64,000 nt of DNA, taken from Octopus vulgaris (Eukaryota). Position 1 is the first letter of the stretch. Every line of letters begins with the position of its first letter. The stretch covers positions 55,428,001 to 55,492,000 of the forward strand of contig OX597820.1 of NCBI GenBank assembly GCA_951406725.2, given 5' to 3'. The notes below the pieces were generated by a model. That model searched no databases, was not told the origin of the DNA, and was given only the letters and a program-made list of their open reading frames with translations. This document shows, piece after piece, positions 1-14,171 of the stretch. The position numbers and the translations under genes are program-made.

Positions 1-335
1 CTGTTCCTTGTTATCAATTATGTCCTTAGCATGTCTTTGTACTAAACAAAATCTATTTTGTTTTTGTTAGAGTCATTGTTTTTAATAAAACACATTCATA
101 CACAGGCCTATCACTTTGAGCCCTTTATTGTAAATAGTCTATGTTTTTATACTAGTAACCACAACGCAGACAGACCAAACAAAATTGGACTGGATCTACC
201 TATTTAACAACCTACACACACGTAGATATATTTATATATTGTTTATTTATTATGGTAGTTTTGACTTTAAGAGTCCCTCCTAGCATGAGGCATTTATGTA
301 TAGTAATGCCCTTAATATAAGTAGATATATTTATA

Positions 336-536
336 TGGCATGTCTGTGCCGGTGGCACGTAAAAAGCACACACTACACTCACGGAGTGGTTGGCATTAGG
401 AAGGGCATCTAGCTGTAGAAACACTGCCAGATCAGACTGGGCCTGGTGCAGCCTTCTGGCTTCCCAGACCCCAGTTGAACCGTCCAACCCATGCTAGCAT
501 GGAAAGCGGACGGTAAACTATGATGATGATGATGAT
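336..536 (+). mobile_element. RTE-clade LINE 3' UTR/tail (5'-truncated copy)
   Basis: GTGCCGGTGGCACGTAAAAAGCAC...GGTTGGCATTAGGAAGGGCATC...CCAACCCATGCTAGCATGGAAAGCGGAC, then a (GAT)n tail. The same sequence directly follows RTE C-terminal coding remnants at 22503-22993. Confidence 0.75.
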
Positions 537-599
537 ATATACCTACACATATACATCTGTATATACATATATACACACACACACATACATATATGTATA

Positions 600-636
<37 letters not shown>

Positions 637-712
637 TCATCATCATCATCATTTAGCGTCCGTTCTCCATGCTAGCATATATATATATATATATATATAC
701 ACATGCACACAT

Positions 713-746
<34 letters not shown>

Positions 747-749
<3 letters not shown>

Positions 750-1020
750 GGTTGTTGTGCACATCAAGAAATTGTAAATATATACACAGACAATTTGCAA
801 TAATTTTATTAGTTTTACAGATACATACAACACATGTACATATATATGCCTGCACTCAGTTTTGGGATAGTGGAGGTAAAGACAGATGTGTAAAAATAGA
901 GGCTGCACAGTTATCGAGTTAATATCAGTTGAAATAAAACTATGTAGAAAACTAATAAAATTATTGCAGACTGCTGGTGTAAATATATTTACAACTTCCT
1001 CTTGTACACAACAAACCACT
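747..1020. mobile_element. MITE-like fold-back element with ~75 bp imperfect TIRs
   Basis: Perfect 21-bp inverted repeat TGCAATAATTTTATTAGTTTT (796-816) / AAAACTAATAAAATTATTGCA (948-968), extending imperfectly out to AGTGGTTG...AACCACT. Confidence 0.6.
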
Positions 1021-1167
1021 ATTGATTTTCATTGCACTCTGCAACACAGTGAATATGTTACCATACTGTGACACATGACGCATATATTATGTTAATGCAA
1101 AATATCAACATAGGGCATATTTCTGACAATGTGTGTGTGTGTGTGTGTGTGTATGTGAGAGAGAGCG

Positions 1168-1462
1168 AGCGCTGAGAGATAAACTGGATATAAAGGATAT
1201 TAAATGCAGTGTGCTGATATGGACATGAAATATGAAATGCATATAGAGGATGACAGCTGTATAAAGCAGTGCAGGACACTCAAAGAAGACATAACTTGTG
1301 GATGTGAAAGAGAGAGAGACCTAGAGAGACAGGGACTGGTGGTGAAGACTGGCCTTAGTATGTTGAATTGCATAAAAGAGCTGACCAATGACTGCAATGA
1401 TAAGCAGTATACAGAGCTGGATAAAATCTGTCCACTGGTGCAAGCATGGCTAAACAAATGAT
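1168..1462 (+). mobile_element. Degenerate RTE LINE C-terminal coding fragment
   Basis: Translation MHIEDDSCIKQCRTL...LVVKTGLSMLN..KELTND resembles the RTE C-terminus seen more clearly at 22850-22990. Confidence 0.5.
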
Positions 1463-1489
1463 GAATTAACGCTAGTGGTCGATACTGAT

Positions 1490-1571
<82 letters not shown>

Positions 1572-1576
<5 letters not shown>

Positions 1577-1800
1577 CGTAAAAAGCACCATCCAATCGTG
1601 GCCGTTTGCCAGCCTCGTCTGGCACGTAAAAAGCACCCACTACACTCATGGAGTGGTTGGCATTAGGAAGGGCATCCAGCCGTAGAAACATTGCCAGATC
1701 AGACTGGGCCTGGTGCAGCCTTCTGGCTTCCCAGACCTCAGTTGCACTGCCCAACCCATGCCAGCATGGAAAGCAGACGCTAAACGATGATGATGATGAT
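1572..1800 (+). mobile_element. RTE LINE 3' tail
   Basis: Same family as 336-536, with duplicated GGCACGTAAAAAGCACC units and a (GAT)n end. Confidence 0.75.
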
Positions 1801-3276
1801 ATATATCCACTGTTGGTGCTCTTACCTAATTCGTCTCTATGAAGCCTGCATCCAATGCTCCACAATGCCTCTTTGGAACCTGTCATCTCTTTATCATTCA
1901 TTGCTGTTACTCATACTTTCTGTTACTATCATTTATCTCTATTACACACATTTCCTCATCACTCACACCCTCTGTACTACTCTCTCTCCAATTCACATCA
2001 TTATTCTGTCTATGCAGCCAGGAATAGCACTGATCTGTCTAGCCCTTTCATCTCTCTGACACCTTCCTTTCAATACTTGTTGCTCACCAATGTATCAAAA
2101 GAATGGTGTGCAGGCTACCATCTACTTTTATTACCACTTAAAAAGAACTCCAATGGCTCAGTTCATAACTGATACATGCAACTACCTTTCTGTATTGCCA
2201 GACATCACTCCCTCTCCCCTCACATAAGCCATCCACTACTGACATCCATCACTCTCACTCTCTTTCATCATTGCATATCTCTATTATCATCCATCACCTG
2301 CTCAATCACATTCTCACACCTGCAAACATGTAGCTGCCATTACTGTCTTGCCTCCATTACTCCACCTACCAGCAGTATCACCCTCACACATCAATCACTC
2401 TGTTTCATCTCCTTGCTACTCTCATCTTGACCCTCCAGTCCTTGTTCACCTTTGTCCACCCTCTCTAAGCCACACTACCTTGAACTGAGACAATAAGAGA
2501 GTCCCTTTGATATTATCAAGGAAATGATAACTCCTTTAGTTTTGGTACCATGATCAAATGCCCATGGTGTACTCAGTAAGAAAGCCGCTGTTAGGAAATG
2601 CATCCTTAGAACCCTTACAAAAAGTGTGATGTATGAGTGCAACAGACTCTCTCAACTCATGCTAAAGGACAGTAATTCTAAAAGAGAACTGATTTGAACT
2701 GGGGCAACATGTGTTGTGTGTGTGGCGGGGAGTGAGAGGCATAGCCATGAGGATTTGGGTTTAGTTCCACTGCATGACATCTTGTGCATGTGTCTTCTTT
2801 TATAATCATGTACTGGCCAATGCATTGAGTGCAATTGGTATATGGAATTTAAGCAGAAACCCATTGTATGTGTGTGTATGGTATAGCTGTTGGGCTTCAT
2901 GGCCAAGGGTAGACTTGTAAAACTTGGAAATTTTTTAAATAACATTCATCATCATATTTTTAAAACCACTTTAAAAAGAACTCATAAATGCACTATTTGT
3001 TTGTAATGCCCTGTGTTGTCCCATATATATATGTCTTGCAAACAACTTGCACATGCAAGTGCTACCAGTCAAAAGTTCCGTATACCGGAAGCCAGCAAGT
3101 GTATGGGGTCATCAGGAGAGAATGCGTGCCGTTTCAGGGCCTACCTCTCGACGTCATCAATGCGCACCGGCCCCCCTCACTGATATGAGGCCCTGCTTGC
3201 TAGATCAGTAATTATTGTAATAAAGAATATAATATGATATATAATTATTGTAATAAAGAATCATCTCTTAGGTACA

Positions 3277-3321
3277 TCTCATCGATAAGAGTCAATAAAC
3301 TTGAAACATCAATGTCTGAGA
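3277..3321 (+). ncRNA. Degenerate type I hammerhead ribozyme motif, U3:A8 core variant
   Basis: TCTCA-TCGATAA-GAGT caataa ACTT-GAAA-CATCAATG-TC-TGAGA: stems I, II and III can all be drawn. A second copy lies at 5950-5996. Confidence 0.55.
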
Positions 3322-3492
3322 CTCTCAAGAGAGGGTGACACTGAATGAATCGGGTGTTTTCACACCTTTTTACCACAAGAGAGATTTTTTCTCCATGGTA
3401 ACTTTAGCAGTTGAAGTGTGTGACAAACATATTTGAACTAACCTAAATTGTGATTATACATAAACACTGCTTTTGTGCCATTACTTTGTTAA

Positions 3493-3963
3493 ATATATAT
3501 ATGAAAGATGGTTTGAAAATGCAATTTTAAAGTTGTTTATTCACTTGACAGGTTTCACTTTTTGAGAAAAAGATTGTGAAAAGTAAAATGCAAAGGTTTG
3601 TATAAGCTTTGTTGTGTTAAGTACTGGTTGTCACAAAATTATTAAAATACATATATACATTCTTTGATAATAATAACATAATGTGAAAAACAGTTTTCAA
3701 GAAAGTATTTAAGAAAATATTCAACAAAAAAAAGTATTAGGAGTTCAATATAAATCATGTTTGTTTGACAGTATATATATACATACACAGAATAAGTATT
3801 TGGAGTTCAATAAAAATCATGTTTGATAGTATATATATACACAGAAGGAGATATGTTTAAGAATTTACAAAAAATTGGAGAGAAACCAACCTGCGTTTTT
3901 GTCATTTTTTCTACACAGGTTGGTTTCTCTCCAATTTTTTGTAAATTCTTAAATATGTCTCCT

Positions 3964-3995
<32 letters not shown>

Positions 3996-4272
3996 CTACC
4001 AAGCAAACATGATTTATATTGAACTCCTAATACTTTTTTTGTTGAATATTTTCTTAAATACTTTCTTGAAAACTGTTTTTCACATTATGTTATTATTATC
4101 AAAGAATGTATATATGTATTTTAATAATTTTGTGACAACCAGTACTTAACACAACAAAGCTTATACAAAGCTTTACATTTTACTTTTCACAATCTTTTTC
4201 TAAAAAAGCGAAATCAGTCAAGTGAATAAACATCTTTAAAATTGCATTTTCAAACCTTCTTTCATATATATT
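3493..4272. repeat. Long inverted repeat (~360-400 bp arms, ~22 nt spacer)
   Basis: 3493-3893 is the near-perfect reverse complement of 3916-4272. The left arm carries an extra ~55 bp internal duplication. Confidence 0.92.
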
Positions 4273-4309
4273 TCCACTCGTGTGTTATCTTACAACTTTA
4301 CTTTGTTAT

Positions 4310-4357
<48 letters not shown>

Positions 4358-4412
4358 CATTCAAAGGAATTCCAAGTCTGTTTTTCTATGTTTTATATAT
4401 ATATATATATAT

Positions 4413-4743
4413 ACAATTGCAGCGTGGAAGGTGTTTATAAGCCATTTAAGAAACACACAAAAGCTGTTCGATTCACTTCAACATTTAAGTTTAATTTGTC
4501 AAAATATTTTCGTCGCTAAAATCCGCGACCTGTTCACTGACAAAAATCCGTGCTGCATTTTGTCAGTGAACAGGTCGCGGATTTTAGCGACGAAAATATT
4601 TTGACAAATTAAACTTAAATGTTGAAGTGAATCGAACGGCTTTTGTGTGTTTCTTAAATGGCTTATAAACACCTTCCACGCTGCAATAGTTTTCGTTTCA
4701 GCACACGATCTCAGATCAAATTACTTGCTATGCGAGTACATCT

Positions 4744-4746
<3 letters not shown>
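4413..4746 (+). mobile_element. Penelope-like pLTR with 5' inverted partial copy, inserted in (TA)n
   Basis: 130-bp arms 4416-4545 / 4558-4687 with one mismatch and a 12-nt loop. The right arm continues to CTCCC|(TA)n. (TA)n lies on both flanks, and the arms contain a hammerhead fold. Confidence 0.7.
4559..4608 (+). ncRNA. Minimal type I hammerhead ribozyme motif, G3:C8 core variant (mirror copy 4495-4544, minus)
   Basis: TTTGTCA-GTGAACA-G-GTCGC ggatttta GCGAC-GAA-AATATT-T^TGACAAA: 7-bp stem I, 5-bp stem II and palindromic stem III. Confidence 0.65.
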
Positions 4747-4792
<46 letters not shown>

Positions 4793-5758
4793 CATACATA
4801 TATATATATGAACATATTTGTCTGTATGTGCATAAAGAGAACAAAAGTATTGTATGTTAACTATGTTCAATAAATCTCTCTCTCTCTTCCTTTCTTTCTC
4901 CCTCCCTCATCCTCCCGTTCGTCCCTTTTTGTCCTCTCTCTCCTTTTCTTATTCTTTTTATCTATAAGTTAATATTCTTACTCTTTTTATTTAACATGTG
5001 GAGGAGGGGCCCCCCATTGCCAAAAAGTACTGTCACCAAAACAGTCTGAATGTCCATTTAGCCATGCCTAATCATCAGTGTCCAAGCAGCTTCACCCAAT
5101 CAGATCATTCTGCTTGCACACAAGACATTAAAAAATACTTTTGTCTTACTAACCACTTATAACTTATGAAACGATATTATAATTTTCAATTTATTCAAAA
5201 ATCTTCATGAACTCATTTTATTTCTGGGTTAACCAATATCAGTCAATGTACATGCGGAGTAATTTTCAGTTAAAAAACAATGATATGACTATTTCAGTTT
5301 TACATAACCTCTGTGTATGAGATATCTGACAGAGATAAGAAAAATGTGTCTTTGTCTTTTCTCACTTGTTAATTATGACCGAGTATTACGAGTTTTTAAT
5401 TTATTCATTAATTTCTTTGTGGACATTGTGCTTGAAAAGACATGTCAAGTGAAGTAAAAGTGTGGTTGTCTTTACATACAGGCTTATCCCCTGCATCCCT
5501 CTCCAACTGAGAATTCTTAATCTTTTGGGCTTGTAGATGTTGGTGCCATGTAAAAAGTACCTGGTAGTCCCTGTAAAGTGGTTAGCATTAGGAAGGGCAT
5601 CCAGCTGTAGAAACCAAGCCAAAACAAACATGAAACCTGGGCAGCCTGTATGTATGGATGACAGTGATTTTACTTAACACATTGACTGATTTACGCTAGT
5701 AGATTGCCTGATTGAGAAAAATATCGGAGTAATGGTGCTAAGCAGTGTTTACACATAA

Positions 5759-6142
5759 TCAGTGTATTTGCCTTTAGCAGTTGAAATATATAACAAACAT
5801 ATTTCAACTAACCGAAATTGTGATTATACATAAACACTGTTTTTTCTCGATTGGGCAATCTACTAGTGTAAATAAGTCTATGTGTTGGCTGAATTATATA
5901 TAAGACTATAAGCTTTATCAGTTCATTCAGAGTTGCCTCTCTTAGGTACATCTCATTGATAAGAGTCAATAAACTCAAAACATCAATGTCTGAGATTCCC
6001 AAGAGAGGGTGACACTGAACGAATGGAGTGTTTTCACGGCTTTTTAACATAAGAGAGATTTTCCTCTACAGTAAGTGCAGTGTATTTACCTTCAGCAGTT
6101 GAAATACGTAACAAACATATTTCAGCTAACCTAAATTGTGAA
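5759..6142 (+). mobile_element. Penelope-like pLTR remnant in partial tandem
   Basis: ~5760-5825 is repeated at ~6078-6142 and is homologous to 3262-3470. It ends in (TA)n and contains a hammerhead-like motif at 5950-5996. Confidence 0.55.
5950..5996 (+). ncRNA. Degenerate hammerhead motif, U3:A8 variant
   Basis: ATCTCA-TTGATAA-GAGT caataa ACTC-aAAA-CATCAATG-TC-TGAGAT. The G12->A change is consistent with CpG decay and probably inactivates this copy. Confidence 0.55.
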
Positions 6143-6385
6143 TATATATATATATATTGTCCACAGGGGGCTAAACATAGAGGGGACAAACAAAGTGATT
6201 AAGTCACTTTGCGGTTTCCAGTTTCCATGCCATGTAGCTAGGTTCAGCTGAACCCAGTCTGACTCATTCAAAAGAGAGCCTGAATGATGAAGAACTCAAG
6301 AGAAACAGGTCCCTAGACCAGCCCAAATAAATTACTGCACTCTATATCCATAGTGAGTGCTTCTTCTCCAGTTTGTTACCTAACA

Positions 6386-6416
<31 letters not shown>

Positions 6417-7659
6417 CAGGTATATGTAACAGTTACATGATGGAAGAGTAATGTTAGTTAAAAACACATGGAAATCTTTCATTTTCATTTATTTAAAGAT
6501 TTGATCCTCCTTATTTTTAGAGGGCGTTAGTGGAGGTATTGGTGAAGGAGTTTGATTCCCAACCACATGGTTCTGGGTTCAGTACTACTGCATGGCATCT
6601 TGAGCAAGTATCTCTTTCTTCAGCTCTGGGCCAACCAAAGTCTTGTGAAAGGATTTGGGAGACAAAAACTGAAACTCAATTGTATAAATAAATGTGTGTG
6701 TGTGTGTGTGTGTGTGAGTACATGTGTGTTACTGTCTCCTTGCTTTGATATCATGTAATAGTTGTAAATGAGTGTCCCTGTCATACAAGCAGTGTCCTTT
6801 GTTTTTAATCTTCTATGGAAACATGGCCAGCCAAGAGGAAATATTACCTTACTTGGAAACAGGTGAGGGCTGACCACAGGAGGAATATCCAGCTGAATAA
6901 ATCTGCCTAAACAAATTTTGTCTGACCTAAATAAGCATGGTAAAGTGAATGTTACGTGACAATGATGTTGATGATCATGGTGACTGTATACCATTAGAAT
7001 GTCAAGTTGTTTTGTTGCACTTCTGTGACAAAGTCATTAATTTGTGCAGTGAATTTGGTTCAGTAACCAGGTCATAAGTATGCAACAAAACGTGATGCTA
7101 TACAAAACTATTAAGAAATATAAAAATTTGTTTTTAAAGTTGAATATGACTTGACTCATCACAATGGTGTGTGTCTGTGTGAGTGTATGTGAGAGAGAGT
7201 GAGAGAGAGAGAGAATTCCAAAATATTGTTTATTGTAGAGAATGTATATTTCATTCAAATATGTATGCATAGAAAGTAATCATGCATACAACAGTTGAGG
7301 ATCGTCATATACAAAGTAATATATATAAATAGTACCAATGGAAATTCTAGTTATTTTGAAAACTGGGGTACATGAAGAACAGTGAGAATTCAAAGAATAA
7401 CATAGCCATTCATTATTAATATGTTCTAACAAATTCAAACATATACGATTGTTGCTTTTTGGTCATAAGAGAAACCTTCTTTCTCTTAGGTGATGTGTGT
7501 TCATAACACACATGATTGACTAGTTTAAAGGGACCTTGAAAGACTTAAGTGTTTCAACCTCATTGCATGTCTCCACAGTTGAAACAATCCAATATTGAAA
7601 CATCTGATTCTTTTGATGGTGTAAAATTTCACATAGATAGTATTGAATGTACAGTCTTA

Positions 7660-7952
7660 GGAGACAGGAAGACCCCCTTCGGTCATGAATGACCATTGGA
7701 CTGCACCTAGAAAGTTACCCTCTGAGATTGTTTATGGAAGGCCAGCAGTCACCCATGCATACCAGCCTCCCCTCTCCACACCATTGATGTTATCCAGTGA
7801 TGTCGCAACTTATTTCTACAGCTGAGTGAACTGGAGCAACATGAAATAAAGTGTCTTGCTCAAGAACACAACATGCAGCCCGGTCTAGGAATTGAACTTA
7901 CAACCTCACGATCGTAAGCTCGATGCTCTGACCACTGAGCCGTGTGCCTTCA
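7660..7952 (-). mobile_element. tRNA-derived SINE (GTGTYCTTGAGCAAGACACTT central-domain family)
   Basis: Minus strand reads GGCTCAGTGG (A box)...AGTTCAATTCC (B box)...GTGTTCTTGAGCAAGACACTT. Relatives at ~9476-9690 (+), 30392-30692 (-), 41935-42235 (+) and 52285-52545 (-). Confidence 0.7.
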
Positions 7953-9145
7953 CTTAGGAGACAACATCTCTGAAAGTCATAGTCCTTGTTATACACATGT
8001 CACCTCTTCTTTCACGAAGGTGTTATCTATTATTTTTCACTTCACATCAAGAAGTAAACCATCTAACAATGGAATAAAATTGAAGACATAATCTATCTCA
8101 TAATATAATTTTCCTGCCGTTTGACCACATAGCTAAAGCTTTAACCCTTTAGTGTTTAAACTGACCATATACTGCCCAAATTTTCTACCTTTTTTTTTTT
8201 TGGTTCAAACTAGCCAGTTCTTGCCTCTCACACTGACACAACAATGTCATTCTAAAAATAAAAAAGTCACATCATTGAAATTTCAAACCAATGAGATCAT
8301 GCATGATTAGCTTAAAATACTGTAACTAAATAAGCATTACACTTGACTGAGCAATCTGTCTTTACATTCTGAGTTCAAATTCCGCTAAGGTTGACTTCGC
8401 CTTTCATCCTTTCAGGATCGATAAATTAAGTACCAGTTGCATATGGGGGTCAATCTAATCAACTGGCCCCCTCCCACAAAATTCTAGGCCTTGTGCCTAG
8501 AGTAGAAAAGGATATCTTTTTTATCGACCTTGAAAGGATGAAAAGTGAAGATGACCCCAGACAAAATACAAACTTAGAACATAAAGCCAGAAGAAATTCT
8601 GCTAAGCATTTTCTTCAGAATGTTAACAATTCTCTCAGTTCACCACCTTTGCCGCTTAATAATATAATAGTGTATCTATATCTGTCATCTGGTTAATTTC
8701 AATGCAGACAATATAATAAACACATTAGCTTCTCTCTTTTTTTTATTTATTTCATGTCTGTAGACTAGACTATTCTGAAACAACATTATTAGAGCTAATC
8801 TATTTCCAAATTTTCTTCACCAGACACAATCTGCTTTAAAACTCGGTGGCTCTTTCTTAATATTGTTATATTCTTCAAGACAGACTGGTAGCTACTATAT
8901 TTCTCTCTCTCTCTCTCTCTCTTTCTCATTCTGTCACACATACATAAAACACAAGATACATGAAGAAACACAAAAATACATAAAGGAGATATGCCACATT
9001 GCAGACCAGTCCATTCAAAGCCATTGTTGATAAGTAGAATCTAAAAACAATAATGATTATGATCAATAGGACTCATGGAAACTCTGCATTTCATTAGCTT
9101 TCTTATTTCTATTTTGATTTATAGACATTAACAATCCGGTCTAAT

Positions 9146-9362
9146 AATCTTTTCTACTCTAGGCACAAGGCCCGAAATTTTGGGGAAGGGGGCCAGTCGA
9201 TTAGATCGATCCCAGTGCTCAACTGGCACTTAATTTATCGACTCTGAAAGGATGAAAGGCAATGTCAACCTTGGCGGAATTTGAACTCAGGACATAAAGA
9301 CAGACAAAATACCGCTAAGCATTTTGCCTGGTGTGCTAATGTCTCTGCCAGCTCGTTGCCTT
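9146..9362 (-). mobile_element. tRNA-derived SINE with Meta-domain-like core
   Basis: Minus strand GGCAACGAGCTGGCAGA...GAGTTCAAATTCC...GCCTTTCATCCTTTCAGAGTCGATAAATTAAGT...(ATT)n. Relatives at 8357-8515, 19270-19460, 31476-31690, 34575-34790, 44544-44800 and 51506-51716. Confidence 0.75.
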
Positions 9363-9698
9363 AATCTGCTCTAATAATGTTAAGGGTTTAAATTATATTT
9401 TTGATTTAGTTCAGTAGTTAAAACTGCCCGAAGAGTAATAAAACTTGAACTTATTCCATTATCTTAAATGTTTCATGAAGGCACATGGCTTAGTTGTTAG
9501 GGCATTCAGCTCATGATCGCAAGGTCGTGAGTTCAACTCCAGGCAATACGTTGTGTCCTTCAGCAAGACACTATATTTCACATTGCTCCAGTCCACTCAG
9601 CTGGCAAAAATGAGTAGTACCTGTAATTCAAAGAATCAGCCTTGTTACAATCAGTGTCACTCTGACTCTCCCTGAGAACTACATTAAGGGTACTCCTA

Positions 9699-9867
9699 GG
9701 CGTAGGAGTGGCTGTGTGGTAAGTAGCTTGCTTACGATCCACATGGTCCCGGGTTCAGTCCCACTGCATGGTACCTTGGGCAAGTGTCTTCTACTATAGC
9801 CTCGGGCTGACCAAAGCTTTGTGAGTGGATTTGGTAGATGGAAACTGAAGGAAGCCCGTCGTGTATA

Positions 9868-9908
<41 letters not shown>

Positions 9909-10113
9909 ATGTGTGTGTTTGTTTGTCCCCCCAGCATTACTTGACAACCAATGCTGGTGTGTTCATGTACCTGTAACTTAGCGGTTCGGCAAAAGAGACC
10001 GATAGAATAAGTACTAGGCTTACAAAGAATAAGTCCTGGGGTAGATTTGGTCGACTAAAGGTGGTGCTCCAGCATGGCCACAGTCAAATGACTGAAACAA
10101 GTAAAAAAGTAAA
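9699..10113 (+). mobile_element. Abundant octopus-type tRNA-derived SINE (full length)
   Basis: GGCGTAGGAGTGGCTGTGTGG (A box)...GGTTCAGTCCC (B box), an internal (TA)n/(TG)n tract, and the end ACTGAAACAAGTAAAA. Many copies in the window. Confidence 0.85.
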
Positions 10114-10329
10114 AGGGTATGTCTGTGGAGTGTTCAACCCCTTGCATGTTAATTTCATGAGTTGATTGTTCTATTGACTGGAGCAACTGGGACATTCGCT
10201 GCCATAACGGACGAAGTGCCAGTTTTTAATAAACTTTTCGATTATGTTTTCCATCCTATTTTGATAGTTAAGGTTGTTAACAGTGTAACACTCAAACACA
10301 TGCGACAAGCAGAATAATATTAACAAGTG

Positions 10330-10588
10330 ACATAAAAAGCACCCATGTTGGTGCCACCTGAAAAGTACCCATGCTGTTGCCATGTAAAAAGCTTTCATGC
10401 TAGTGCCACATAAAAAACATCCAGTACGATCTGTAAAGTTATTGACGTTAGGAAGGACATCCAGCCATAGAAATCATACTAAAACAGACAATTGGAGCTC
10501 AGGGAAGCTCTCCAACTTACCAGCTCCAATCAAACTGTACAGCCCATGTCAGAATGGAAAACGGATGTTAAATGATGATGATGATGAT
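10330..10588 (+). mobile_element. Older RTE LINE 3' tail
   Basis: Repeated GTGCCACATAAAAAGCACC units, TTAGGAAGGACATCCAGC, and a (GAT)n end. Confidence 0.65.
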
Positions 10589-10884
10589 GTGTGTATATTT
10601 ATTACAGGCACTTAAGTTATTTGGATGAAAAGTTTTTCTCTTTCTCTTACCTACACACAAACTATAAAGTTAAGATGACAATAGGCACAATTAAAATAAC
10701 AATAAATTAATATAGGTGCAGGTACAGCTGTGTGGTTAAGAAGCTTGCTTTACAACAATGTGGTTTCAGGTTCAGTCCCACTGCATGGCATCTTGGGCAA
10801 GTGTCTTCTACTAAACCCCAGGCTTACCTGGGATTTAGTAGATAGAAACTGTCACCAAGCCCATTATATATATATATATATATA

Positions 10885-11333
10885 CATCAAAAATAAGCAA
10901 CAAGAATGACTCCGGTAATTTGGTACAATTGTTTCGCACTACATCATTTTATCAAAAGTTGTAAGTAGTACAGCAGATTTAAGATGCTGAGTGCTCATCA
11001 GCCAATTATATAGGTTTTCCAATAATACAAAAGCTTTCAAATCAAGTAGTAACATTATAGAGAAGGTAGATATACAGATAAAGATGTAGATTTAAATTTT
11101 AAGAACATATGAGGTTGTGAAGTCCAGCCACTGACTGACCAAGCTATGGCTGTATCCAACCCGCTATAAGATTAGAAGTAATAAAGATTTTTAGTTGTAG
11201 GAATGGGGTAAGAGAGGTTTCAGAATACCATAAAAGGAGTTGCCACTAACAAAATGCCAATTACTGCTATTTGGTGAGAGGAACTAGGTCAATGTCAAAT
11301 GGTCATTCATTAATCCCCTTTACAGAGAATATA
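10885..11333 (-). mobile_element. Penelope-like element 3' fragment
   Basis: Abuts (TA)n and contains a canonical hammerhead. The minus strand reads ...KGINE* near 11305-11325, similar to the GLN ending of PLE ORFs (weak evidence). Confidence 0.55.
10920..11005 (-). ncRNA. Type I hammerhead ribozyme, canonical core
   Basis: Minus strand: TTGG-CTGATGA-GCAC...(long loop II)...GTGC-GAA-ACAATTGT-A^CCAA. Palindromic stem III and a GUA cleavage triplet. Confidence 0.8.
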
Positions 11334-11335
11334 TA

Positions 11336-11557
11336 TGAGTGGGTGCTGAAAGGTTCTTTTCCTGGCTTCAAAGGGTATCATGAAAGATCTGGTTGGAGGC
11401 CCAACCTTCCAAGTTCTTTCACAGGGCTTAGAAAAACTGAAGGACCACTGCAATAAGTGTGTGAATCTGAGAGAGGAATATGTTGAATAAAATCATAATT
11501 AACTGATCCTCCTGTATTTTCTTTAACCCGAAACCTGGAACTTTTCAGCACCCTTCG
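11336..11557. mobile_element. Tc1/mariner-type MITE
   Basis: TA-flanked TIRs of consensus CGAGGGGGTGCTGAAAAGTTCC. Family members at 16742-16958, 30064-30145 (partial) and 30753-30945. Confidence 0.75.
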
Positions 11558-11563
11558 TATATA

Positions 11564-11628
<65 letters not shown>

Positions 11629-14171
11629 TGTGTGTGTGTGTGTGTTCTTGTTTGTTTGTTTCCACCTTCACTGCTTGATAACTAGTGTTGGTTTGTTCAT
11701 ATCCTCTGTAAAATAGTGGCTTGGTAATAAAGACCAAATAAGTACTGGGTGTGATTTATTCAACTAAAACCCTTAAATGTGGTGCCCCAGTATGGCCACA
11801 GTCCAATGGCTGAATCAAGTCAAAGTAAAAGATATAATCACACCGTCACCACAGTTTTTGTTGCCACTGCTGCACAGTAACAACAAAAACATCACTTGTA
11901 CAATCATTACTAGTATGAATCAGTGGGAAGCCTCTGTCCTGTTGCCTGTTCTGCTAGAAATAGTAACTAAACCCTCCATAAATCAAACCGCTCCATCTCA
12001 GATGAAGAATACAATAGACAATATAGCAATGTTTGATAAACATAGAAGAAAATAGAATGGTCAAAGCTGCAATAGCTTTGATCATGGTTTCGTTCAATGA
12101 AATGAATGGTGACATTGGCATCATCATTTAATGTTTGTTTTCCATGCTGGCATGGGTTGGATGGTTTGATAGGAGCTGGCCAGCCAGAGATCTGCACCAA
12201 TCTGTTTTGACTTGGTTTCTACAGCTGGATGCCCTTCCAACTGCCAACCACTTTACAGAGCATACTGGGTGCTTTTTATGTGGCACCAGCACCAGTGCTT
12301 TTTATGTAGCACCCCAGCACAAGTGTTTGTATGTGGCACCAGCATAGGTGCATTTATGTGGCACCTGCAAAGTGGTGAAATGTTAATATTTACACAGACA
12401 TAGATGTTGGGGTGGGGAGACTTTGATCATAGATCTGCTTGATTAATGCAGACCTGGAGCTAAACTACAACCATCACAAATTCAGCCGACCTCAGCAATG
12501 CTAGCACCAAACACTATGAGACCCCATGAGCAACCAAAGACACTTCTGCATGGGTATCTGGCCGACTAGAAATAGCAGCCAAATACTCACAAATCACACT
12601 TTACCACCATAACCAAGTAAGGACCCAGTGGATAACATAATCCTAAATGTAGAAGATGGGATGTAACCTGCATTGCCTTCTTTGATGAGAGGTCTGCTTG
12701 ATTAGAAATTACCTGAAGCCAAACAACTAAAAGAATGCTATAACTATCACTGCCACCACTGCTATCCCAACCATAAGGAACATCATCTTCCAACTTAGAG
12801 CCAACGAAAGAGAGCTTCTGTGTAATCATTCAAGCTGCTAGAAACAACAGCTAAATTTCCCTCAACTGACACACCACCATCTTAAATATAGTTAGGACAC
12901 ATTAAATAATGTAATAGTAGGACTACATTATTCAATCCTAGATAAGATTATCTGGGATTAAATAAGGGCAAGGTTGGGAATGCCTTTGATTATATATTCA
13001 CTAAATCAGAGCTGTCTTGTAACTAAACATTTTTCAACCACCACAACATTAGTATTATGAGCTAACAAGTGAACATCTCAGTGGTCAGTCAATCAGCTAG
13101 AAATAACAGTCTTAACTTCCTCAAATCATACCCAACCATTTTTGAAAAGGCTGCCTTGTATAATGTGGTGTTAGACCACTCATGCATGAGAAAAAGACAG
13201 GATGGTCATAAGTGGAATATCTTTGCTCAATTAAGGCCAACCTGAGGCTAAACAACAACAATGATCAGGATTCACCTGGGGTTAAACATCCCCAACATGT
13301 AAACAAGGGAGCCTCTATGTGGTCATGAAACTTGCTAGAAATAGCAGCCCAATCTCCCTAAAAGTCAAACCCTTCTGTCTTATATAAGAAAGCCTATTGG
13401 ATAATGTGGTCTTACATACACAGAAAAAAGTGGGGTGGTCATGACCAGATTGCCTTTAATAATAGATCACAGCTGCAGCCATTAACTCCACCTCTGGCAC
13501 CATCACAAGAACCACCATCTTGATAAACAACAGTGTAAACAATAGCAATAACAACACCAGCAGGTCACTATAACCATGGCCTCAACCAATAACAACAACA
13601 TTGCCACGACGACGACGACAACCACCACCACCACCACCACTACCTCCTCAACAACAATAACAACAGCAGCAGCAGCGCAATAACAAAAACTATATGTCAT
13701 CAATGATCAATAACAAAAATCAGGAGATATGGATGCATATACTGAGATGGGAGAAAGTGAAAGGAAGAGATGGCAAGAGGGGGAACAGGGGGAATATGCC
13801 TAGATTTAGACCAATCAGAGCTGGAACTTGCTTCCTACTGCGTCAAACTGCAGAGCAAGAGCCAGATGACAATGTCTAGAGGCAGCAGTGATTTTTTTTC
13901 TACAGCTTGTAGAGTTTCTAGATATGTTGATAAATAAATGGAGTTGACTCCACAGGGTTGTATCAGATTGATGTTTCATGGACAATGTACAAATTAGAGG
14001 ACAAGCATTTTGTGCATGTATAAATCTCTGTTTCACTGAGTTCTTATGCATACATACATGCAGACACACACACAATAATTAATAATTAATAATTAATTGC
14101 ATGCAAATATATGATGATATGGTTCATTGTGTATGCATGTGTGTGCATATACACATGTATCTCTCTTTCTT

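Follow-up and report, generated by a model that had tools for sequence, protein, structure and literature searches.

The window, a 64,000-nucleotide stretch of the Octopus vulgaris genome (contig OX597820.1), holds an inverted-repeat insertion between two (TA)n runs, and each arm of the repeat carries a copy of a hammerhead motif. The features are given below in window coordinates; the hammerhead parts from stem I to the helix III palindrome were assigned by sequence.

4394..4413, no strand: (TA)n run, left insertion boundary
4413..4558, minus strand: inverted arm, another short copy, without the tail, whose start is the 5' end common to copies, 58 nt ahead of the cut
4495..4544, minus strand: identical second copy of the hammerhead, within the inverted arm (U17 at 4502, position 3 at 4537)
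4559..4745, plus strand: main arm, a 5'-truncated pLTR or 5' end of a Penelope-like element (blastn, 97-98% to both pLTRs of locus L253)
4559..4608, plus strand: minimal type I hammerhead fold (from sequence, fold, alignment and pair counts with relatives)
4559-4565/4602-4608, plus strand: hammerhead stem I
4566-4572, plus strand: core GUGAACA, positions 3-9, with G3 and C8
4573, plus strand: extra G after position 9
4574-4578/4587-4591, plus strand: stem II with an 8-nt loop
4592-4594, plus strand: GAA
4595-4600, plus strand: helix III palindrome AAUAUU
4601, plus strand: U17, with the predicted cut at 4601/4602
4658..4745, plus strand: the opening 29 codons (MAYKHLP...) of the element's frame, which begins 56 nt past the predicted cut; in L253 and L254 the frame runs on into RT and GIY-YIG
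4691..4745, plus strand: 'tail', on one arm only
4747..4809, no strand: (TA)n run, right insertion boundary

The 133-nt arms of the repeat (4413-4545/4558-4690) are 98% identical, and 4495-4608, its centre, forms a single hairpin of 51 bp without mismatch (-84.5 kcal/mol). A sequence-only reading of this DNA had assigned that entire interval to one hammerhead; the right-hand part holds, with the plus-strand motif at 4559-4608, and 4495-4544 proves to be its minus-strand mirror copy. Within the hairpin, neither strand is computed to form stem I or stem II (probability 0.0), so the window copy is predicted not to cut. The dimer cleavage proposed earlier is not supported for this locus either, because the two copies lie on opposite strands, form no cis dimer and mask each other. 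Fold calculations thus predict an inert inverted fragment of a Penelope-like retrotransposon. Another long inverted repeat lies just upstream (3495-4271, arms of about 400 nt, 22-nt loop); parts of it match L147 and L142, and no hammerhead was found within it.

Folded alone, 4558-4612 adopts stems I and II (-15.4 kcal/mol, z -3.47, with 0 of 200 shuffles as good), and in the full-length context without the inverted arm the computed stem I and II probabilities are 0.93-1.0. Sequence and isolated fold agree with the earlier description of a minimal type I hammerhead in which positions 3 and 8 have both changed, and its stems, core, extra G, GAA, palindrome and U17 were each found where they had been placed. 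The motif has U4, G5, A6, A9, G12, A13, A14, the pairs A15.1:U16.1 and G10.1:C11.1, and an NUH triplet (UUU). The literal CUGANGA box is absent, the window reading GUGAACA, and the motif is therefore filed as a hammerhead variant; Watson-Crick pairing remains available between positions 3 and 8, as G:C. In the monomer, G3 is computed to pair with U17 at a probability of 0.67. Rfam returned no hammerhead match in window positions 1-12000 or in L253, giving sub-threshold microRNA-type matches only, and it also missed the canonical-core relatives L289 and L292.

The motif is the pLTR hammerhead of a Penelope-like retrotransposon and stands at both ends of its RT/GIY-YIG frame. Two near full-length loci, L253 and L254, share the order hammerhead, MAYKHLP frame, RT, CX3CxxC linker, GIY-YIG, repetitive 3' UTR of about 1 kb, hammerhead and tail. 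The L253 hammerheads, at 2242 and 6503, flank the frame 4.26 kb apart, and about 900 nt of 3' UTR precedes the 5' one, so that this copy exceeds one unit. RT motifs SMDVVSLYPS and RYVDD and the endonuclease motif VY..YIG share one frame, and the linker CQSNCAVC, read in L215, is of the CX2-5CxxC type before the endonuclease, which points to placement toward the Neptune or Nematis groups. Pfam gave a weak RVT_1 match in 5 of 30 aligned relatives and GIY-YIG in 2, with none in the family's own row; look-alike clusters with RVT_1 and GIY-YIG were found, and a PDB sequence search gave one weak RT match. Among named proteins the closest, labelled Octopus vulgaris, matched 31% of the query at 96% identity. 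The commonest recorded phylum of one look-alike cluster is Nematoda, a lead only. The marks described for Penelope-like elements (PMC8557442) are all present: pLTR direct repeats (in L253, L254, L220 and L222), an inverted 5'-truncated copy, a one-sided tail and a (TA)n target.

The GIY-YIG end was traced from longer copies to L142, and among the 20 loci picked by it, 11 have the hammerhead unit further downstream, oriented the same way. Three other candidate links were rejected. L139, which joins the unit to a GIY-YIG end, is a fusion with a different family: its endonuclease has 39 other matches, of which 39 cease at the junction, and those among the matches listed run into their own 3' end. 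The coding-like flank in L041 belongs to an older element (68-86% matches) struck by an insertion, the unit being found in 0 of 19 other loci, and the RT frame 5 kb upstream in L063 was assigned to a sister family. L139 and L041 are thus family copies fused with or inserted into other Penelope-like families.

An exact search of the 2.8 Gb genome with a 19-mer that covers the core from G3 to C8 gave 5,888 matches (control 0), and a looser G3:C8 descriptor has 8,581 against 145 for the reversed pattern, an excess that argues against a chance hammerhead likeness. When positions 3 and 8 were both forced to differ, 18 matches remained, none of them C3:G8; six were A3:U8 and were excluded from the covariation analysis, as two transitions by decay give the same result. 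Conservation was assessed on 163 arm copies from BLAST-picked loci, a set of 138 distinct sequences in which some duplicates remain and which leaves out loci picked by the core pattern. G3 and C8 occur together in 142 of the 163 (G3 in 161, C8 in 143), which makes G3:C8 the family consensus, as the sequence-only reading had anticipated. C8 is the least conserved core position (7 deletions, 13 substitutions), and the other core or invariant positions (U4, G5, A6, A9, G12-A14, A15.1:U16.1, G10.1:C11.1 and the triplet) are each kept in at least 156 copies. The share of minority letters is 22.8% in loop II, against 2.2% in the core, 3.4% in the downstream sequence, 0.7-1.7% in stem I and 3.2-7.0% in stem II, which is rich in CpG; subfamily changes gather in loop II rather than in the core. 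The earlier expectation that CUGANGA-based searches would miss the family is likewise borne out, the literal box being absent and G3:C8 the norm.

Some copies are arranged in other ways. Short tandem arrays of the hammerhead unit, with (TA)n between units, occur at L088 and L052. Seven copies on contig C1 (L395, L431, L432, L434, L435, L440 and L457) share both junction and flanks and therefore represent one hairpin insertion carried as a passenger in another repeat (at least seven copies on C1); a self-copying hairpin was rejected for them, given the shared flanks.

A sister family in the same genome, L262 (G000:C17:6331579-6336951), has in the same place the hammerhead CUGAUGC-G-GUCAC..GUGAC-GAA-AGAACU-U, that is C3:G8, and its stems I, II and III show compensatory changes relative to the G3:C8 family. 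We ran a descriptor that leaves positions 3, 7, 8 and 9 free on 50 loci, namely L262, L253 and the first 48 of 78 loci from a metagenome scan (the other 30, L335-L364, weak distant matches, were left out). The 12 hits reduce to 10 distinct motifs. Each lies in a terminal repeat adjoining the frame, on the coding strand, and all 10 are Watson-Crick at 3:8 (C:G in 5, U:A in 3, A:U in 1 and G:C in 1, the last seen in one family only) under a descriptor shaped after two scans that required a 3:8 pair. Fifty shuffles gave 0.32 hits per pass, of which 0.22, or two thirds, were unpaired at 3:8. In the motif alignment 90.9% of cells are paired, against 59.5% when shuffled, and the covariation score is 0.84 against 0.22 (0 of 500 shuffles), with slid controls reaching at most 0.18. 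Since all 10 distinct motifs keep a Watson-Crick pair, we regard the 3:8 swap as true covariation; together with the G3:C8 consensus, this upholds the covariant ribozyme family postulated from the window alone. The palindromic helix III is kept in 9 of the 10 aligned motifs, the tenth (L289) having a shorter palindrome out of register; the extra nucleotide is G in all 10 and U17 is present in 6. A tree of 21 rows, built from this analysis's loci only and with broken frames read with X, makes the two octopus families sisters (100/99) beside a C:G relative (82/84), in a group that also includes U:A. By parsimony, this placement indicates that G3:C8 is likely derived from C:G on the octopus family's own branch.

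The sister family (L262 and L257-L286) is very young, with copies about 99% alike and open frames near 1,310 codons that contain an Asn-rich insert; position 9 is C in its hammerhead and also in L288. A candidate natural A3:U8 motif lies behind a related frame at L302:2810-2840, with no clear stem I and a weak fold.

The ends of the copies bear on which RNA was copied into DNA. In a sample of 100 consecutive matches on contig C1 to a pattern 48 nt past the cut (8,811 matches in all), 46 of the 5' ends lie 55-64 nt before the cut (about 58) and 1 lies within 3 nt of it; 15 are slightly nearer than the main group (7 of these being one insertion), 19 fall inside the hammerhead, 12 after the cut and 7 further upstream. 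The 3' ends are bimodal: 45 of 100 stop near +90 and lack the tail, and the other 55 reach about +147 or continue into the TA run, keeping the tail in part or in full. The pile-up of 5' ends upstream of the cut, with 1 in 100 at the cut, suggests that the copied RNA mostly carried an uncut hammerhead. Reverse transcriptases can copy the cap as an extra G. Of 33 junctions at the common start, 17 show a G in place of the parent's C or T, compared with 1-4 of 33 at three sites further upstream; one locus enters this count twice, and at about six of the junctions the G may instead derive from the inverted arm or from a tandem piece. These extra Gs suggest a capped RNA that starts from a pLTR promoter about 60 nt before the cut, and Penelope itself has a pLTR promoter (PMC2377424). 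In L142:7640-7670 and L253:2195-2225 the common start directly follows ACUAAC, a pyrimidine run and YAG; in sequence it looks like both a splice acceptor and an initiator. For ACUAAC...UUCUCAG/AUG as an intron end, no splice joint was present there in contigs of 4 possible RNA runs, which by their nature cannot show ends, strand or cleavage.

With moderate confidence, we favour a Penelope-like pLTR hammerhead whose 3:8 pair has been swapped from C:G to G:C and which likely cuts slowly, as a dimer or aided by protein, the window copy being an inverted fragment predicted unable to fold. Under this reading, the pLTR promoter would yield a capped RNA beginning about 60 nt ahead of the cut. Nicks in (TA)n would let the RT prime at two positions a short way into the frame, about +90 and +147, and extend to the RNA 5' end. 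Such priming would leave thousands of 150-210-nt insertions, and two such cDNAs joined back to back would give hairpins like the window locus. The two hammerheads of a full-length RNA, separated by 4.26 kb, could pair through AAUAUU or be folded by a protein, and a minority of transcripts would then be cut, either removing the leader or releasing unit-length or circular RNA; the G3-U17 wobble would keep most molecules uncut. Energy does not favour the dimer: the computed double hammerhead has -28.8 kcal/mol, compared with -30.8 for two monomers at their best fold (-28.2 without G3-U17), tertiary contacts being uncounted, and the best co-fold, at -32.7 kcal/mol, is a different structure. Also counting against this reading are the single copy start near the cut, the G3-U17 pairing, the weak conservation of C8 and the likeness of the common start to a splice acceptor. 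By analogy, dimer cleavage fits the published behaviour of the class (PMC4209133, PMC6765202). G3-C8 is reported as less active with C17 than with G17 (PMC3884650), and U17 may therefore have permitted the 3:8 swap. More tentatively, we see a possible extension, itself doubtful, in which one Penelope-like clade samples all four Watson-Crick pairs at 3:8 (natural G3:C8 and A3:U8 included) and octopus G3:C8 with U17 acts as a built-in brake, so that capped, uncut RNA is reverse-transcribed and cutting awaits the opening of the ribozyme by the element's own protein or by a second copy.

The predominance of uncut templates would also be expected if the hammerhead were vestigial, silenced by the swap or by G3-U17, with its fold kept as a promoter, leader or protein-binding site. 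Insertion of the anole element in vitro is unimpaired by catalytic mutants (PMC11167929), Naiad elements are described as multiplying without canonical hammerheads (PMC8557442), and C8 is the most variable core position. A dead core, however, is not expected to swap both partners to a new Watson-Crick pair, and here U4, G5, A6, G12-A14 and the helix III palindrome are retained, with subfamily changes falling in loop II; we hold loss of function to be rather unlikely. At the other extreme stands efficient dimer cleavage that sets the ends of a unit-length or circular RNA serving as the normal template, as Cervera and de la Pena have modelled it; the sequence-only reading had likewise suggested cleavage as a dimer. 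The 3' UTR stretch ahead of the 5' hammerhead in long copies such as L253 is what a circular or read-through template would give, and the palindrome is widely kept, but copy ends show no pile-up at the cut site, the dimer energy is marginal and the class has low activity in vitro (PMC4209133), which leaves efficient dimer cleavage a distinctly unlikely account.

A 133-bp inverted repeat that is near-perfect, sits in (TA)n and is dispersed in many copies could also suggest a MITE or fold-back DNA element, or, with the sub-threshold microRNA matches and no hammerhead in Rfam, a microRNA-like hairpin, with the hammerhead there by chance. Yet Rfam also misses the canonical-core relatives L289 and L292, the ends are asymmetric, with the tail on one arm, and the junctions vary. 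Most copies are not symmetric hairpins, an inverted hammerhead copy being present in 8 of 27 loci, and the unit is a pLTR belonging to an RT element. The full-length L253 and L254 contradict a fold-back origin, which we consider highly improbable.

The octopus hammerhead resembles the minimal type I hammerheads of metazoan Penelope-like elements in Cervera and de la Pena 2014 (PMC4209133), described as dimeric, with an extra nucleotide, a palindromic helix III, low in vitro activity and a natural U3-A8 variant. Common to both are pLTRs at both ends of the RT-EN frame, the extra nucleotide between 9 and 10.1, G10.1:C11.1, the palindromic helix III, a common U17, thousands of solitary copies and some close pairs on opposite strands. 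The octopus family differs in having G3:C8 where theirs have C3:G8, G3 appearing in 0 of 56 rows of their figure S3, and in the extra nucleotide, G in every motif here and A, C or U in their consensus. Natural 3:8 covariation is shared with the U3:A8 hammerheads (Perreault 2011, PMC3088659; Schistosoma Cercyon, PMC4209133), a pair also carried by three relatives in this analysis; those types keep pyrimidine 3 : purine 8, whereas the octopus family has purine 3 : pyrimidine 8, and U3:A8 is the only natural 3:8 variant in the available part of Perreault 2011 (PMC3088659).

The same core pair has been made in the laboratory. An engineered C3G/G8C hammerhead is partly active (PMC8495972), and C3G/G8C partly restores cleavage in the anole Penelope-like hammerhead PAc (Frangieh 2024, PMC11167929). 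PAc cuts only with protein and is dispensable for insertion in vitro, where uncut RNA is used, and two internal start sites of its RT set the tail (PMC11167929). The octopus family shares with PAc the core pair of its mutant, a hammerhead at the frame start and AT-rich targets; the copy ends suggest that two internal RT starts and an uncut template may be shared as well. PAc, a Poseidon element, has the pair as a lab rescue mutant, in contrast to the natural G3:C8 of the octopus family, whose linker is CX3CxxC. The PAc start codon precedes the cut by 26 nt, and that of the octopus family follows it by 56 nt. By analogy, the octopus position recalls viral 5' UTR hammerheads tied to translation (PMC13725137). 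The C-terminal GIY-YIG, CX2-5CxxC linker, pLTRs, inverted 5'-truncated copy, tail at one end and (TA)n targets resemble Neptune/Nematis-type elements (Craig 2021, PMC8557442), whereas the octopus tail, at about 55 nt, exceeds the described 30-40 bp; two Octopus rows in the table of that paper, both Naiads, do not include this family.

Natural G3:C8 was not found in the part of the literature searched, which gave engineered cases only; the available portions of PMC8782182, PMC6155905, PMC2920678 and PMC11014351 contain nothing on it, and broader literature searches gave no octopus report of such a hammerhead. Provisionally, natural G3:C8 is new, the ribozyme type and the kind of host retrotransposon being already known. 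On comparative sequence evidence, the assignment as a naturally occurring core variant is well supported for this ribozyme, which is of an established type, is predicted to self-cleave and resides in a retrotransposon of an established kind.

Through its purine-pyrimidine inversion, the family lends evolutionary support to the 3:8 tertiary pair, known first from a crystal structure and probed by mutants. CUGANGA or YUGANRA descriptors overlook whole families, with about 8,500 matches in the octopus genome alone, and statements that elements 'lack' hammerheads therefore merit re-examination. Sister C3:G8 and G3:C8 families in one genome form a natural pair for comparing rates, and the pile-up of copy ends upstream of the cut offers genomic evidence on whether Penelope-like hammerheads process the transposition template. 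Several other hammerhead-like motifs occur in the same genome (L178/L207/L458, L192/L221, L098, L108, L208/L219 and L120), most of them U3:A8 without the extra nucleotide and one C3:G8.
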